Shown here one piece after another: positions 1,617-18,996 of a stretch of DNA of 54,942 bases. Positions within the stretch are counted from its first letter, which is position 1, and every line of letters begins with the position of its first letter. The DNA lies in assembly GCA_023485405.1 (NCBI GenBank), contig JAMCZU010000006.1:1-54942 (forward strand), given 5' to 3'. A program made the position numbers and the translations under genes. Source of the stretch: Patescibacteria group bacterium. GTDB taxonomy: Bacteria; Patescibacteriota; UBA1384; UBA12157; JAENIV01. The notes under the pieces are model-generated. The model was not told the DNA's origin. It saw only the letters and a program-made list of their open reading frames with translations, and ran no database searches.

Positions 1617-1633
1617 AACAATTAACAAGACCG

Positions 1634-1750
1634 AAAAAGGCACACCTGTTGTAAGACAGGGTCGCAAAACCACGGGTCCGACTCGAGTAATCGAGGGATA
1701 GCCGGGTTGCCGGAAATGTGCTCACAGAGTTCGTTTCGGCGAATTTTTTG
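1634..1750 (+). promoter_or_regulatory. Candidate c-di-GMP-I (GEMM-I)-like riboswitch aptamer (1634-1713) plus putative terminator (1709-1750)
   Basis: AAAGGCACACC-UGUU-GUAA-GACA-GGGUCGCAAAACC-ACGGGUC...(CUCGA-GUAA-UCGAG)...GAUAGCCGGGUUGCCG matches remembered GEMM-I blocks GGCAAACC / GGGACGCAAAGCC / AGCGGGGUUACCG. Stem gccg(g)aaa/tttcggc followed by a T-run overlaps the 3' end of the aptamer. Confidence 0.5.
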
Positions 1751-10256: not shown

Positions 10257-10823
10257 ATGAACAAGGTAAAATATCTTTTGACCTATCGTTATGCCGAAAT
10301 CATTCATGATTTGACAGTGGAATTTACTCAAACTTATGTTTTAAGTGGCTTAAGTAACTTAAGAAATCTAAGTTTTCAACGAAGGCCAGATTTTAGGACA
10401 GCCGATCAAATGAATCAAGCTGCTCGAAGTGGTAAACAAAACATTGTCGAAGGAGTTGGGCAAAGCCAAACTTCTTCCAAAGGGTTAATTAAACTTTTAG
10501 GGGTTGCCAACGCTTCTTTTGAGGAACTTCTTTCTGATTATGAAGATTTTCTTCGTCAAAATAAATTAACAATTTACCCAAAAACCGATCAAAGAGTAAC
10601 TGATTTTAGGAAACTTGGTTATCGTCTAAGTGACTTAGGCGAGCTTGAGGAAAAGCCAAAACTTTTAGGCAATCCGGAAAAAGACGCTAATTTTCTTTTG
10701 ACACTTTGCCACTTGGAAACTTATCTTTTGGGTAAACAAGTTAAAGCAGCTGAAGATAAGTTTGTTGAAGAAGGCGGTTATTCGGAAAATCTCTTTAAAA
10801 GAAGACTCCAAAACCGCGAATAA
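10257..10823 (+). CDS. Four-helix-bundle protein (23S rRNA IVS / Avd-like family with C-terminal suffix domain)
   Basis: NIVEG...ASFEEL pattern and overall length resemble four-helix-bundle plus suffix-domain proteins. Not adjacent to an RT. Confidence 0.5.
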   Translation: MNKVKYLLTYRYAEIIHDLTVEFTQTYVLSGLSNLRNLSFQRRPDFRTADQMNQAARSGKQNIVEGVGQSQTSSKGLIKLLGVANASFEELLSDYEDFLRQNKLTIYPKTDQRVTDFRKLGYRLSDLGELEEKPKLLGNPEKDANFLLTLCHLETYLLGKQVKAAEDKFVEEGGYSENLFKRRLQNRE

Positions 10824-10878: not shown

Positions 10879-10909
10879 TTGACAAATGCAGAGAGAGAGA
10901 GAGTTAAAT
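10879..10909 (+). promoter_or_regulatory. Sigma70-type promoter with (AG)7 tract in a 19-nt spacer
   Basis: TTGACA 10879-10884, spacer aatgc(ag)7 of 19 nt, TTAAAT 10904-10909. Confidence 0.45.
10890..10903. repeat. (AG)7 dinucleotide tract
   Basis: Direct reading. Confidence 0.95.
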
Positions 10910-10964: not shown

Positions 10965-11378
10965 ATGGGACCAGAGCAAATATCGCAAGAAGAAGTCCAA
11001 GTGGCCGAGAAGATTGACAAGCAAGAGGAACTTAATCAAGTAGGTTATCGATTTGGCTCCGAGTATTTTCAAGAAATTGTAGACGATGGTCAAACGCCAT
11101 CATCATATCTGTGGAATGGTCGAAGAATATTAAGATCAACTTTGCAGTGTATGGCATCAAAGTTGGTTGAGTCTAATCATGCTAGTACAGTCTATGATCG
11201 TGAGAATACTAAAGATGTTAAATTGTCGCATAACGCGCCTGGTCTGTATGAACTTCAAACGAATGATCCGAATTACCAAGATTTTGTTGAGTCTCTTAAT
11301 GAAATAATGAAGCAATATGATAACTTATTTACGGGTTCAGAAAAAATCCGAGAAGCGGCAAACGAAGAGACTGCTTAA
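10965..11378 (+). CDS. Hypothetical protein, GC-richer orphan (137 aa)
   Basis: GAGGAGG lies 6 nt before the ATG. Terminator acctca/tgaggt plus T-run at about 11408-11436. Confidence 0.5.
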   Translation: MGPEQISQEEVQVAEKIDKQEELNQVGYRFGSEYFQEIVDDGQTPSSYLWNGRRILRSTLQCMASKLVESNHASTVYDRENTKDVKLSHNAPGLYELQTNDPNYQDFVESLNEIMKQYDNLFTGSEKIREAANEETA

Positions 11379-14589: not shown

Positions 14590-15017
14590 CCAAACTTTTA
14601 GGTTTAGACATTGGTGAAAAAAGAATCGGGGTAGCTATAGCCGAAGAAAAAATGGTGGTCCCCTTTGGCATTATTAATAATACCAATCTAGATGAAGCCA
14701 TATCGGAAATCGGTAAAATTTGTCGAAATGAAAATATTTTAAAAATTATTATTGGTATTCCTAAATCGGAAGATTCTGTCCAAGCGGATAAAATCTATAA
14801 ATTCGCGTTGACGCTAGCGCAAAACTTAAATTTAGAAGTTGATTTTGTTGATGAATCTTTAACCTCAAAGGAGGCCGAGAGAGAGCTTAAAAATAGTAAT
14901 TTAGATCCTAAAAGTCACGAATTTAAAGAAGAAGTAGACAAACTTTCAGCTAAATATATTCTAGAACAATACATAAACCAAATCCGAAATCCGAAATCCG
15001 AAATCCGAAAAAAATGA
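14586..15017 (+). CDS. ruvX: Holliday-junction resolvase-like YqgF/RuvX
   Basis: LLGLDIGEKRIGVAIAE N-terminus. ATGA overlaps on both sides. Confidence 0.75.
   Translation: MTKLLGLDIGEKRIGVAIAEEKMVVPFGIINNTNLDEAISEIGKICRNENILKIIIGIPKSEDSVQADKIYKFALTLAQNLNLEVDFVDESLTSKEAERELKNSNLDPKSHEFKEEVDKLSAKYILEQYINQIRNPKSEIRKK
14981..15008. repeat. Tandem heptanucleotide repeat (AATCCGA)x4
   Basis: Direct reading. Encodes the last residues of ruvX and ends 5 nt before the mltG ATG. Confidence 0.95.
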
Positions 15018-15922
15018 AAAAGATTTTATTTATTATTTTTATTATTATTTTTACAGCGATTGCGGGGTTTGCGATTTATTTTTATATTAATCTAAGTAAA
15101 AAAGGCAGTGGCCAGGTAAAAGACTTTATTGTCCGTTCTGGTCAAAGCACGCGTGAAATTGGCGATAATCTTCAAAAAGAAGGACTGATTTCTTCTGCTA
15201 CTGTTTTTACTTATTATGCTAAAATGCGGGCTGATTTGATCCAAGTTGGGGTTTATAAAATAGCGCCGACCCAATCAATCAAAGAAATATTAGCGGTTTT
15301 AACTTCTGGCAAAACCTCTGAAGATATTATTACTATTCCGGAAGGTTGGCGGGTAACCCAAATTGACGACTTTCTTACACAAAAGAAAATTATCCAAAAA
15401 GGAACATTGCTTCAAATTGCCTCGGCTAATGAAGGTTTTTTATTCCCCGACACTTATCGTTTTATGCCTAACACTAAACCTGAAGAGATTCGTCAAGAAA
15501 TGCTTGATAATTTTAATCAAAAAACCACTGATCTTAAAGTCACGCGGGAAAATATTATTTTGGCTTCTATTGTGGAAAGGGAAGCTAAATTTGATGAAGA
15601 TCGAGCGAAAATTGCGGGGGTTTACCTAAATCGTCTGGCACAAAATATGAAATTACAAGCTGACCCAACGGTTCAGTATGCTAAGGGGAGTTGGGACCCA
15701 ATTACAGTTTCTGATTATAAAAATGTCAACTCACCTTACAATACTTATCAAAATTTAGGCTTACCGCCTGGACCAATTTGTAACCCAGGAATTAAATCAA
15801 TTGAGGCTGCTTTACATCCGGAAAAAAGTGACTATCTTTATTTTTTTCATAAAAGTGATGGTCATGCGGTTTTTTCAACCACCCTCCAAGAACACGAAGC
15901 AAAGTTAAAACAGTCTAATTAA
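15014..15922 (+). CDS. mltG: Endolytic murein transglycosylase MltG (YceG family)
   Basis: PEGWRV, EGFLFPDTY, ASIVEREA and LPPGPICNPG motifs. Confidence 0.85.
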   Translation: MKKILFIIFIIIFTAIAGFAIYFYINLSKKGSGQVKDFIVRSGQSTREIGDNLQKEGLISSATVFTYYAKMRADLIQVGVYKIAPTQSIKEILAVLTSGKTSEDIITIPEGWRVTQIDDFLTQKKIIQKGTLLQIASANEGFLFPDTYRFMPNTKPEEIRQEMLDNFNQKTTDLKVTRENIILASIVEREAKFDEDRAKIAGVYLNRLAQNMKLQADPTVQYAKGSWDPITVSDYKNVNSPYNTYQNLGLPPGPICNPGIKSIEAALHPEKSDYLYFFHKSDGHAVFSTTLQEHEAKLKQSN

Positions 15923-16098
15923 CCAAAATGTCCACCTCGTAGGTGGACAACAGGTTTAGGAATGTAAAGAACTATTGACAAAAAGGCTATTTTAAGGTAT
16001 AATAATATTTAATATTGAGTAGTTTAACAATTTTTCCTTGGAGCTTATTTGGTCGGGAAAATGGTCAGTTTATCCTGATTAGGTAAGCTCTAAGGAGC
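15919..16098 (+). repeat. 180-bp cassette 5' module, copy 1 (family A hairpin, promoter and structured leader)
   Basis: Near-identical (a handful of substitutions) to 50746-50925. Confidence 0.9.
15975..16003 (+). promoter_or_regulatory. Consensus sigma70 promoter of the DGR target gene
   Basis: TTGACA, 17 nt, TATAAT. Confidence 0.7.
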
Positions 16099-16147: not shown

Positions 16148-16816
16148 ATGGAAAAAGATCGAGTTACCCTCGAACCGGCAGCAGAGGACTACGGTAGAAG
16201 ATGTAAGAGCATTGGCTTGGAGCGGAAGACTGTAGCTGATTTGCAAGATGCGATGAGTCATCCGGAATTCAAGACCAGCCATCACACTCTTCTCGACAGA
16301 TTGGCTGTTGAGTATCGCTTGAGCAAACCGCTCATAGAGCGGCCGCCCTTCGCAACGATCCAGATCGGAACCTTCAAGAATCTGAACAATCTTCGGAGTG
16401 CGTTGAAGAATGCCAAGTGCAACATCTCAAGCTACGCTGACGATCTCTTTGGTCGAGTTACCTTGGCTACGGAGCCGATGATCCTCGACCTCTGCCGAGC
16501 TTCCAATGCCGAACTTGGTTTGACCCAGGGTGGCACGGTTGCTCAGACGTTCGAGGCGATCGCCAAGATTGGTGGCGAGAAGCTTCCGGCGGAAGCTGGA
16601 CCGCAGTATCGTCTGCAGAATCTCGACCAGAAATTGGGTGAATGGGAACTGATTTATATGGATCCCATCATCGACCGCGTTGGTTGCCCGGACGTGTTCA
16701 GCGTCGAGCACGGCAAGGGCGGTCTCTGGCTCTACGGCTACAATGCCAGTCCTGACTACTTCTACCACGCCGAGTTCGTCTGGGTGTTCAGTCGCAAGCG
16801 ATCTGTTGGTTCTTGA
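16148..16816 (+). CDS. DGR target (variable) protein, 222 aa, GC-rich, no signal peptide or TM visible
   Basis: AAGGAG lies 9 nt before the ATG. The last 44 codons are the VR matching the downstream TR. Confidence 0.85.
   Translation: MEKDRVTLEPAAEDYGRRCKSIGLERKTVADLQDAMSHPEFKTSHHTLLDRLAVEYRLSKPLIERPPFATIQIGTFKNLNNLRSALKNAKCNISSYADDLFGRVTLATEPMILDLCRASNAELGLTQGGTVAQTFEAIAKIGGEKLPAEAGPQYRLQNLDQKLGEWELIYMDPIIDRVGCPDVFSVEHGKGGLWLYGYNASPDYFYHAEFVWVFSRKRSVGS
16665..16797 (+). repeat. DGR variable repeat (VR)
   Basis: Gapless 133-bp alignment with TR at a 531-bp offset. 16 mismatches, all opposite TR adenines. Confidence 0.9.
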
Positions 16817-16857
16817 GTTTTGGATTCTTGTTCCTTTTGTTTTTTTGGGTTTTGTCT

Positions 16858-16879
16858 GGGCCCCGCGTGAGCGGGGCCC
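16858..16879 (+). terminator. GC-rich hairpin about 60 nt downstream of VR (terminator and/or DGR homing-associated hairpin)
   Basis: gggccccgc-gtga-gcggggccc. The same hairpin recurs at 51705-51726. Confidence 0.55.
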
Positions 16880-16976
16880 AATTTGTATCAACAAATTGGG
16901 TTTTCCGAAAAAAATTTTCGTATTTAATCTTCCATCAAACTTGACAGATGAGTACTCTTTAAGGAAAAATGAATAT

Positions 16977-17370
16977 GGTATTAGGTGAATATGCGGGTGG
17001 TTATGGCTTCCCGCTACCGAGCCTAAGTATCGCTTTTTATCCAGAGTGTTCCCAGCTACGGCTTGGGGCAGAGCGATAAGCGAATGCTTAAAAAAATGAA
17101 GATGCTTGGTGCAAGGCGCTAGTGGGTTAAATGGCCCAGAATAAAATACAGTCCTGAGAGCAATCGAAGGACAGTGACTATAGAGAGCGTCTGGTACAAA
17201 ATCGACCGCGATGGTTACCCGAACGTGTTCAACGTCGAACACGACAAGGACGGTCTCTGGCTCAACGGCAACAATGCCAATCCTGACAACTTCTACCACG
17301 CCGAGAACGTCTGGGTGTTCAGTCGCAACTTTCTTCATTTCTCCCGTAGTAAACGGGAGTTTTGCTTTTT
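16977..17370 (+). ncRNA. Putative DGR template RNA (structured 5' region, TR and 3' hairpin); ends approximate
   Basis: Possible promoter TTGACA (16941-16946), 18 nt, AAAAAT. Several GC stems upstream of TR. Hairpin ctcccg-tagtaaa-cgggag plus ttttgcttttt at 17341-17370. Confidence 0.4.
17196..17328 (+). repeat. DGR template repeat (TR)
   Basis: See VR. About 38 adenines, many in AAC codons. The 5' boundary is uncertain by a few nt. Confidence 0.9.
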
Positions 17371-17710
17371 AGTTGAGACTTCTTATCCATCCACCGAGCA
17401 TTCTACCAATTTCTTGTAGATTTTCCGAGAGTGATAAATATCTTTTAGTTGATATGGCTTTAACGTCTTCGGCCAATCGAAGCAAATTTTTAAGTAAATC
17501 AAGTTTGGCTGATGCTACTGACAGGGTTTCGAGCTTTTGATGTTTACCTTGATGACTTGCCAAAATTAAATCTTTAAAAAGTTCAAGTATGGTTTCTTGG
17601 ATTCTTTCGCCTAAAACATAGCGATCTTGCTTAGGAATGTGAGGATACAGTTTATATAATTCGCGATAAAAATCGTAGACCTTTTGAACAATTGGAACAT
17701 CATTATTCAT
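17369..17710 (-). CDS. avd: DGR accessory variability determinant (Avd-like four-helix-bundle protein), about 113 aa
   Basis: From the internal ATG at 17710 (AGAGG 6 nt upstream): MNNDVPIVQKVYDFYRELYKL...IGRMLGGWIRSLN, typical of the Avd / 23S-IVS family. Lies between TR and RT but on the opposite strand. Confidence 0.75.
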   Translation of the reverse strand: MNNDVPIVQKVYDFYRELYKLYPHIPKQDRYVLGERIQETILELFKDLILASHQGKHQKLETLSVASAKLDLLKNLLRLAEDVKAISTKRYLSLSENLQEIGRMLGGWIRSLN

Positions 17711-18721
17711 GGATAACCTCTTTAATAAAATTATTTCAATAGAAAACTTATTTTTGTCTTGGAAAGAATTCAGAAAAGAAAAACGTAAGAAAGCCGATGT
17801 ACAAGAATTTGAGCGGAATTTAGAAGATAATCTTTTTAGTCTGCATCTGGAGCTTAAAAACAAAACTTACCAACATTCCGATTATACCTCATTTTACATT
17901 ACTGATCCAAAATCAAGGCATATCCACAAGGCGTGCGTAAAAGATAGAATTGTCCATCATGCGATTTATCGAGTACTATATCCAATGTTTGATCCGATTT
18001 TTGTGGATGATTCCTATTCTTGTCGTAATAAAAAAGGAACACACAAAGCGGTAAAACGATTAGAAAAATTTAGCCGAATTGTAAGTCACAATTATAATAA
18101 ATCTTGCTGGGCGTTAAAATGTGATATTAAAAAATATTTTGCTTCAGTTAATCATCAAATCCTTTTTGGTTTAATTAAAAATAAAATTCAAGATAAAGAT
18201 GTTCTATGGCTAATTTTTGAAATAATTTCCAGTTTCACAACTCGAGAGAGAGAGAGAGAGGAATACCGATTGGCAATTTAACATCACAACTTTTTGCCAA
18301 TATTTATTTAAACGAGTTGGACCAATTTGTTAAACATCGTTTAAGGATTAAGTACTATCTTAGATACTGTGACGATTTTATTATTTTAGACAATAACCAT
18401 TTAAATTTAGAAAATCTTATTGGTCAGATTCAATTCTTTCTCGATTGCCAGCTTGGTTTGAAACTGCATCGGAGAAAAATTATTATTCGAAAACTTAATC
18501 AAGGAATTGATTTTCTAGGCTATATGATTTTACCACACTATATCTTGCCTAGAAGAAGAACTGTCCGCCGAATTTTTCGAAGTCTAGAGAAAAAAGTTAC
18601 TACCGAACCACAAAAAGCCAATGCCAGTTTGCAATCGAACTTGGGTTATCTAAATCATGCCAATGCCTACAAAATTTCAAAGGCCTTAAAGAAGATTTGC
18701 AAAAAAATTAAAACAATCTAA
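17709..18721 (+). CDS. DGR reverse transcriptase, interrupted by a +2 frameshift in a (GA)8 tract (two ORFs, 17709-18281 and frame-2 continuation to 18721)
   Basis: RT motifs CDIKKYFASVNH, then in the next frame GIPIGNLTSQLFANIYLNELD (DGR-type), YCDD and GIDFLGY. Removing one GA unit gives one continuous ORF. Confidence 0.85.
18244..18260. repeat. (GA)8G dinucleotide tract inside the RT gene
   Basis: Direct reading. Confidence 0.95.
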
Positions 18722-18729
18722 TTAAAAAA

Positions 18730-18751
18730 GCCGAGCGGGGGCGCGCTCGGC
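18730..18751. terminator. GC hairpin between convergent RT and csrA; T-run on the csrA side
   Basis: gccgagcg-ggggcg-cgctcggc, with A6 upstream on the plus strand (T6 after the hairpin on the minus strand). Confidence 0.65.
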
Positions 18752-18769: not shown

Positions 18770-18967
18770 TTATTCATTGCCATCGTCAAAGGGGGCTCGG
18801 GCATTTTCTGCTTCAATCTGCTCTAGCAGCTCCTTGCGATGAACCGGTATATCTCGCGGGGCGTCAATACCTAGACGCACTTGGTCTCCTCTGATTTCGA
18901 TGACTAGTATTTCTACGTTGTCGTTAATCACAATAGATTGGCCGGTTTTTCTGGCTAAGACCAACAT
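18770..18967 (-). CDS. csrA: Carbon storage regulator CsrA (RNA-binding translational regulator), 65 aa
   Basis: MLVLARKTGQSIVINDNVEILVIEIRGDQVRLGIDAPRDIPVHRKE is a near-textbook CsrA sequence. AAGGAGG lies 9 nt before the ATG at 18967. Confidence 0.85.
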   Translation of the reverse strand: MLVLARKTGQSIVINDNVEILVIEIRGDQVRLGIDAPRDIPVHRKELLEQIEAENARAPFDDGNE

Positions 18968-18996
18968 TTTCAACGACCTCCTTTTCGACTATGTCA

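Follow-up and report, generated by a model that had tools for sequence, protein, structure and literature searches.

A conserved GA microsatellite as a candidate on/off switch in the reverse transcriptase of diversity-generating retroelements of Patescibacteria

Contig JAMCZU010000006.1 of the Patescibacteria group bacterium assembly GCA_023485405.1 (54,942 nt, all of which was analysed and is called the window below) carries a diversity-generating retroelement (DGR) whose reverse transcriptase (RT) gene is split between two reading frames at a (GA)8 tract. This tract is probably a hypermutable contingency locus, at which slipped-strand changes in the number of GA units switch DGR mutagenesis on and off. 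The tract is found at the same site in many related RT genes, and in four lineages of relatives its length differs between otherwise almost identical genomes.

The split reverse transcriptase and its GA tract

The first part of the RT gene (N part, 190 aa, frame 0, nt 17709–18281, + strand) contains the fingers motifs and corresponds to positions 8–106 of the Pfam RVT_1 profile. Its open reading frame (ORF) begins with ATG at nt 17709 and runs through ...EIISSFTTREREREEYRLAI (...SSFTTREREREEYRLAI) to a TAA stop at nt 18279–18281, 19 nt past the tract. The second part (C part, nt 18260–18721, + strand; RVT_1 positions 118–205 of 205) lies in the -1/+2 frame, and reads RERERGIPIGNLTSQLFANIYLNELD (GIPIGNLTSQLFANIYLNELD) from GGA at nt 18260, continuing through the GIPIGNLTSQ, YCDD and GIDFLGY motifs and the thumb to a TAA at nt 18719–18721. 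This frame is open from about nt 18222, so overlapping the N frame by 60 nt, and its first start codon of its own is a TTG at nt 18317.

The frame-switch point is the sequence gagagagagagagagag (nt 18244–18260, + strand), a perfect and uninterrupted dinucleotide tract of 17 nt that codes for RERERE in the loop directly 5' of the RT motif GIPIGNLTSQ. Nucleotides 18240–18269 read act cga gag aga gag aga gag gaa tac cga, and the CCG proline codon of GIPIGN comes only 5 nt after the tract. The sequence-only reading that drew attention to this gene had stated that the RT frame ends at nt 18281 with the downstream motifs displaced by 2 nt, that the 17-nt tract is the switch point, and that deletion of one GA unit restores an RT of about 336 aa. 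All of this was borne out, by ORF and frame arithmetic and by the RVT_1 matches of the two halves: the tract is (GA)8 followed by G, and the single ORF obtained by removing one GA unit is exactly 336 aa long. The frame is also restored by one additional nucleotide (337 aa) or by two additional GA units (338 aa).

The repaired RT matches RVT_1 over profile positions 8–205 (E = 6e-20), and its top relative of solved structure is the Bordetella DGR RT, bRT (8ub7_A, E = 3.5e-40). A motif of the [I/L]GxxxSQ type that marks DGR-clade RTs (GIPIGNLTSQLFAN) is found in the C part. Judged from its sequence, the RT as encoded cannot give an active enzyme, because the N fragment is without the catalytic YCDD.

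A GA run of 12 nt is not expected by chance in DNA of this composition (0.00 expected, from 100 dinucleotide-preserving shuffles of the window), and the window has only two other GA tracts, (AG)7 at nt 10890–10903 and the 9-nt GAGAGAGAG at nt 14877–14885. The assembly is otherwise clean, with ORFs of at least 100 aa covering 86.6% of the window, and further split genes were not noticed in it. The tract has two features that characterise contingency loci: it is a perfect repeat within an ORF and its unit length is not divisible by three, and a change in the number of units rebuilds or breaks an ORF that is intact in all other respects.

The same tract in related reverse transcriptases

Homologues of the repaired RT number in the thousands, those with names coming from Levybacteria and Daviesbacteria. 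The best match is 78% identical, and no near-identical intact copy of the window RT was present among the homologues searched. The closest relatives (P0001, P0002, P0003, P0004, P0006 and P0083), at 17 to 35% amino acid distance from the window RT, carry RERE peptides at exactly the same loop, and their DNA has perfect GA tracts of 30, 20, 20, 18, 19 and 11 nt, respectively. All of these are in frame, in a sample biased by having been picked via intact proteins. More distant homologues have a short loop at the site of the tract.

Species representatives of GTDB were scanned at the DNA level for GAGAGAGAGA followed, after 8–38 nt, by CCNATYGGNAAYYTNA, which codes for P-I-G-N-L. At least 119 loci were found, of which 118 are RT genes among the matches listed (the exception is locus L105). 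The counts given below refer to these listed matches, so that any prevalence is a lower bound, and by a rough estimate a handful of chance matches would be expected from such a scan. The sequence-only reading had proposed orthologous DGR RTs of related genomes as a check, and the outcome is that GA tracts occupy the same site in at least 118 other RT loci. Nearly all of the listed loci are labelled as candidate phyla radiation (CPR)/Patescibacteria, the taxa including Saccharibacteria, Berkel-, Wolfe-, Uhr-, Doudna-, Yanofsky- and Nomurabacteria, Paceibacterota and others, while some third-party taxon labels (Gammaproteobacteria, Bdellovibrionales) are possibly unreliable. The listed tracts are perfect, are 10–71 nt in length and lie in the same RT loop just 5' of GIPIGNLTSQ. 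The longest, 71 nt of perfect GA, belongs to a Wolfebacteria RT (L010, MGIW01000005.1). No further GA/TC tract of five or more units occurs in 828 kb of flanking sequence of the listed loci, and the tract is therefore specific to one loop of one gene. The tract-plus-motif pattern gave 0 matches in viral contigs, and there is therefore no sign of a phage origin.

Three genomes each harbor two separate tract-bearing RT loci (L042/L084, L089/L108 and L038/L051), and several DGRs in one genome can thus each bear a GA tract of their own. The immediate surroundings of the tract also show recurrent features. A C directly precedes it in 101 of the 119 listed loci, TAA(A) directly follows it in 39, and in 26 there is a GC-rich hairpin on its 3' side, often with a TTCG loop, e.g. 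cagccTTCGgctg or gcgcTTCGcgc. The stems of these hairpins differ in sequence while their pairing is kept (listed loci L010–L128). The post-tract hairpin could stimulate slippage or serve as a recoding signal. An Rfam scan of the window and eight related loci gave no match at the tract or at the hairpins.

The tract appears to be an old trait. On a neighbour-joining tree of 273 RTs its state requires only about 10 changes, and 102 of the 106 tract-bearing RTs have a tract-bearing nearest neighbour, while the tract-bearing RTs differ from one another at a median of 48% of aligned residues. These figures indicate that the tract is long-lasting in RT lineages. It is always a perfect alternation of AGA and GAG, although arginine and glutamate have eight codons together, and the conserved entity is therefore the repeat in the DNA, rather than an RE peptide.

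Reading frames and integrity of the two halves

The frame of each locus was called by comparing the long open frame 5' of the tract with the frame of the PIGNL motif 3' of it. Among the 118 listed RT loci, 27 are in frame (ON), and the two possible shifts (OFF) are represented by 45 and 46 loci; under stricter length filters the corresponding numbers are 23, 41 and 38 of 102. In-frame loci make up 23%, somewhat less than one third (binomial p = 0.019). Out-of-frame loci are in the majority whichever assembler was used (IDBA-type 14/18, MEGAHIT 15/18, SPAdes 36/50, nanopore 4/5) and in every class of tract length, including tracts of only 10–17 nt, where 30 of 35 are out of frame and 5 in frame. 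This argues against assembly error as a general cause of the shifted frames.

The integrity of the out-of-frame genes was assessed by joining their N and C parts conceptually and scoring the product against a profile of 120 intact homologues. Full coverage of the RT profile was seen in 77 of 91 listed out-of-frame genes, and YxDD is kept in 88 of the 91. Their C frames are free of stops from the tract to motif 3. Median profile scores are 451–454 for out-of-frame genes vs 466 for genes in frame. Pairs of template repeat (TR) and variable repeat (VR) with adenine-biased differences were found equally often beside OFF genes (50 of 93) and ON genes (15 of 26); the median number of mismatches is 17 in either group. 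Dozens of independently dead genes would not be expected to look like this, since the out-of-frame halves are intact, and the maintenance of both halves implies that either reversible switching or recoding is needed. Natural in-frame alleles carry tracts of 11–46 nt, which shows that the loop tolerates an insert; the tract sits in a length-tolerant surface loop directly before GIPIGNLTSQ.

Tract-length differences between near-identical genomes

Four lineages have flanks that are 99.5–100% identical and yet differ in the number of GA units, each with in-frame and out-of-frame alleles. Loci L060 (18 nt) and L130 (16 nt) are a single GA unit apart and are otherwise identical over 4.7 kb, and L003 (20 nt, in frame) is 99.5% identical. 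The polymorphic lineages include one of Berkelbacteria, represented by three assemblies, Ga0076298, an SRP050083 co-assembly and ERZ27254729. Tracts of 23 nt (L131, in frame), 21 nt (L133) and 31 nt (L132) were found in three sibling JGI samples, 3300013126, 3300013136 and 3300013138, with flanks 99.5–100% identical. Flank identity is 100% over 1450 nt for L071 (29 nt) and the in-frame L092 (27 nt), which come from two SRP263991 co-assemblies, and is lower, at 91–95%, for L010 (71 nt) and L047 (35 nt). Considered as a sign of DGR activity, the substitutions between near-identical assemblies are uninformative: they are few and lie outside the VR, and one apparent gap is a masked run of N. The consensus of a metagenome-assembled genome represents the dominant or an arbitrary allele of a mixed population. 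At the protein level, two clusters formed at 90% identity each combine intact RTs with separate N halves, which end out of frame just past RERE, and C halves.

Tract length has changed at the DNA level between near-identical relatives, and ON and OFF alleles coexist within lineages, a polymorphism of the kind that defines contingency loci. The slipped-strand switch put forward by the sequence-only reading is upheld to this extent: the tract is conserved, and ON and OFF lengths occur in near-identical relatives, from which the switch in the window itself is extrapolated.

The DGR cassette of the window

The element is a complete DGR apart from the split RT; an uninterrupted RT frame is the one component that the window assembly does not show, the break being at nt 18244–18260. 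The accessory gene avd (nt 17369–17710, - strand, 113 aa) is divergent from the RT gene and matches NF033474 (DivGenRetAVD) at 97.7 bits (cut-off 80) as well as PF22296 (bAvd). The TR (nt 17201–17328, + strand) is 128 nt long and contains 34 adenines. The VR (nt 16670–16797, + strand) forms the 3' end of the target gene, and its 13 mismatches to the TR all fall at TR adenines, i.e. at 13 of the 34, and nowhere else. Its end is 19 nt from the target stop. The VR differences are evidence, read from the sequence, of past mutagenic activity only.

The target gene (nt 16148–16816, + strand) encodes a protein of 222 aa with no Pfam or NCBIfam match, the C terminus of which is encoded by the VR. Upstream of it lies a perfect sigma-70-like promoter, TTGACA-17-TATAAT (nt 15975–16003, + strand), identified by consensus match only. 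Downstream of the VR is the usual site of a DGR hairpin, and a GC-rich hairpin of 10 pairs is present about 40 nt past the target stop (nt 16857–16880, + strand), with a putative role taken from known DGRs. A second hairpin, which precedes a run of T, is found directly 3' of the TR (nt 17341–17359, + strand) and may mark the end of the TR RNA. The starts of avd (nt 17710–17708, - strand) and of the RT gene (nt 17709–17711, + strand) are divergent and overlap by 2 nt, leaving zero intergenic space, and each promoter must therefore lie inside the other gene or further upstream. At the other end of the RT gene, a GC-rich, terminator-like hairpin (nt 18730–18751, - strand) lies between the RT stop and a convergent gene for a CsrA family regulator (nt 18770–18973, - strand; PF02599, E = 7e-25), which shares this hairpin with the RT gene.

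The whole cassette of 2.8 kb is flanked by a 22-nt direct repeat (nt 15901–15922 and 18704–18725, 91% identical), the two copies of which form the 3' ends of an MltG-like gene and of the RT gene. Related cassettes occur in varied genomic settings, beside lysS (L009), rplJ (L003) and scpA (L131). The flanking repeat and the varied contexts suggest that the cassette was inserted as a unit.

A proposed mechanism

We propose that slipped-strand mispairing at replication adds or removes GA units, as the length changes in relatives indicate. Each change by one unit would move the catalytic part of the RT, its C-terminal two-thirds with YCDD, into or out of frame. The gene would be ON with 7 or 10 units and OFF with the 8 units of the window, where its predicted product is a 190-aa fragment without the catalytic residues. 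An OFF cell could give rise to ON descendants, and the reverse, because both RT halves, Avd, the TR and the diversified VR are intact. The (GA)8 of the window may accordingly be pictured as a genuine OFF allele able to return to ON, in a population that would be mixed. A subset of cells would then mutagenise the target while the remainder keep their current VR fixed, a form of bet-hedging on hypermutation, and the presumed benefit is that the risk of target mutagenesis would be confined to that subset, with the other cells retaining the selected VR.

Several observations weigh against this reading. The tract is not universal, being present in 6 of 150 cluster representatives at 50% identity and in only 9 of the 120 best intact homologues. 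Six assemblies of one lineage share an in-frame tract of 18 nt, so switching must be slow enough for some assemblies to agree in length. For the window locus itself no siblings were found: exact-protein look-ups with the RT N part, the MltG-like protein and MreB were empty, and a metagenome scan using the window flanks with a variable gap between them gave 0 matches. The adaptive value suggested above is likewise a matter of interpretation, as a self-perpetuating microsatellite in a non-essential gene would look partly similar. Finally, near-uniform frames are also what is expected if expression is independent of frame, by slippage of RNA polymerase or the ribosome.

Alternative explanations

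The last point leads to recoding, in which RNA polymerase (by a 2-nt realignment) or the ribosome (by +/-2 nt) slips on the tract, so that a gene in any frame gives a low, constant amount of full-length RT and its frame in the DNA is nearly neutral. The near-uniform frames over the 118 listed loci fit such an irrelevance of frame, and both halves are intact in the listed out-of-frame genes. The RNA:DNA hybrid of transcription is about 9 bp; all listed tracts are longer than this, and the 17 nt of the window exceed a hybrid shifted by 2 nt. On the ribosome, a period-2 repeat is the same for both tRNAs before and after a slip of 2 nt, and the TAA (39/119) and GC-rich hairpins (26/119) on the 3' side of listed tracts are features that stimulate recoding elsewhere. 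A limit on dose through obligatory frameshifting is established for the transposases of IS1 and IS3. We nevertheless regard recoding as unlikely to be the explanation, since the change in DNA length is directly seen and is sufficient alone to restore the frame. Moreover, known productive transcriptional slippage takes place on homopolymer runs, with stimulatory hairpins 5' of the slip site, and the window has neither a hairpin nor an immediate stop after its tract. Classical programmed -1 frameshifting, in which the ribosome slips at a heptamer and makes short and full-length products in a fixed ratio, would agree with the position of the C part in the -1 frame and with its 60-nt overlap with the N frame. 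The window has no downstream structure, and the possibility was rejected as next to negligible: nt 18222–18281 contain no X XXY YYZ heptamer, and among the listed relatives (27 in frame, 45 and 46 shifted by +1 and -1) no one direction of shift is conserved.

If the split were an error of assembly or consensus, the true genome would have (GA)7 or (GA)10 and an intact RT. Repeats are error-prone in some sequencing technologies, but reads and k-mers are much longer than a tract of 17 nt, split genes were not noticed elsewhere in the window, and the out-of-frame state dominates in the listed relatives with all classes of assembler and with tracts of 10–17 nt, all of which makes this improbable. 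A permanently inactivating frameshift in a DGR that is decaying as a pseudogene appears more improbable still. The RT is split and predicted to be non-catalytic as encoded, and cellular DGRs with inactive RTs are known; however, no second lesion is present (both RT halves are open and score as RT, Avd is intact, and the TR/VR differences are purely at adenines), and among 91 listed out-of-frame relatives the halves remain intact, with the full profile in 77. Thus, of the alternatives named in the sequence-only reading, a true pseudogene and an assembly error are disfavoured, by the intact halves and by the independence of the out-of-frame state from the assembler, and recoding is retained as a rival to the slipped-strand switch. 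An RT made of two polypeptides, with the C part translated alone and the GA tract as its ribosome-binding site, was also considered and was rejected as a general mechanism, because in 71 of 92 listed out-of-frame loci the C frame is without any ATG, GTG or TTG downstream of the tract, and also because fused alleles in frame exist.

Other features of the window

The (AG)7 tract at nt 10890–10903 (nt 10879–10909: cTTGACAaatgc(AG)7TTAAATg) occupies the spacer of a promoter-like site, with a perfect -35 hexamer on one side and a -10-like TTAAAT on the other, upstream of an ORF at nt 10965–11378 that has no Pfam match. The spacer, at 19 nt, is one GA unit longer than the optimum of 17 nt, and the tract may represent a second contingency locus, in this case one based on promoter spacing. 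Just upstream of the promoter-like site is the gene for a protein of 188 aa (nt 10257–10823, + strand) with a weak, sub-threshold match to the four-helix bundles of the 23S_rRNA_IVP/Avd-like type (E = 1.2e-05). A c-di-GMP-I-GGC riboswitch aptamer is present at nt 1630–1715 (+ strand; RF03167, 68.7 bits, gathering score 59).

Comparison with known systems and significance

The DGR of the window resembles that of the Bordetella phage BPP-1 (8ub7) in having an RT with GIPIG(N/S)LTSQLFAN, an Avd protein, adenine-specific TR/VR differences and a VR at the 3' end of the target gene. The differences from BPP-1 are that avd is divergent from the RT gene, the TR lies upstream of avd, and the host is a CPR-type bacterium and not a phage. 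The loop before GIPIGSLTSQ in bRT is short (LPDEGV), and its counterpart in the window RT contains the RE repeat encoded by the GA tract. We know of no control of bRT by a repeat tract.

Slipped-strand loci with CT/GA dinucleotides are established in outer-membrane protein genes of Helicobacter pylori, e.g. sabA (PMC2715451, PMC4081817), and phase-variable methyltransferases underlie the 'phasevarions' (PMC4525171). As in the H. pylori loci, the repeat described here is perfect, short and inside an ORF, the number of units sets the frame, and ON and OFF states are found among near-identical strains (here, among relatives of the window locus). As in phasevarions, the switched gene encodes an enzyme whose state alters other loci. 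Unlike in either, the switched gene is that of a mutagenic RT, which would gate a second system of hypervariation, and the tract is conserved over RTs that differ by about 48% and over many CPR lineages, the switching being deduced from sequences. A further parallel is offered by IS1 and IS3, in which an obligatory frameshift limits the dose of transposase, while some IS630 elements and dnaX use transcriptional slippage. The likeness is that an enzyme related to those of mobile elements is spread over two frames, and active protein is produced by only a minority of expression events. These examples have a fixed slippery site that works in one direction at the level of RNA or the ribosome, whereas in the DGR RTs all three frames occur and the DNA itself changes in length. 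Contingency loci have also been described in phage genomes, where reversible slippage frameshifts serve as bet-hedging outside the classical pathogens (bioRxiv 10.1101/2025.10.21.683753). The present tract concerns another host and another class of gene, with 0 matches of its pattern in viral contigs (see above).

A full-text search of papers on DGRs found no report of a repeat tract, frameshift or phase variation of a DGR RT, although an earlier mention remains possible. DGRs and slipped-strand loci are both known, and it is their combination, a conserved microsatellite that gates a hypermutation RT, that appears to be new. On the restraint of DGR mutagenesis, the regulatory mechanisms were said in a study of Bacteroides DGRs to "await discovery", and bursts of mutagenesis with quiescent periods of fixation were expected (bioRxiv 10.1101/2024.11.15.621889). 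A repeat that toggles the RT is a candidate for a mechanism that is stochastic, heritable and reversible.

DGRs are especially common in CPR. We incline, by a modest margin of confidence, to the view that the GA microsatellite is the long-sought regulator of DGRs in CPR/Patescibacteria, acting through phase-variable hypermutation in which most cells would have a fixed VR and a changing minority would diversify it, perhaps with an additional low level of decoding by slippage that is helped by the TAA and the UUCG-type hairpin found after the tract in many lineages, and that surveys and annotations based on intact RTs miss or mislabel most of these elements. About three quarters of the listed tract-bearing RT genes, which come from species representatives, are out of frame, and pipelines that need an intact RT, or that call such genes pseudogenes, would undercount active DGRs.

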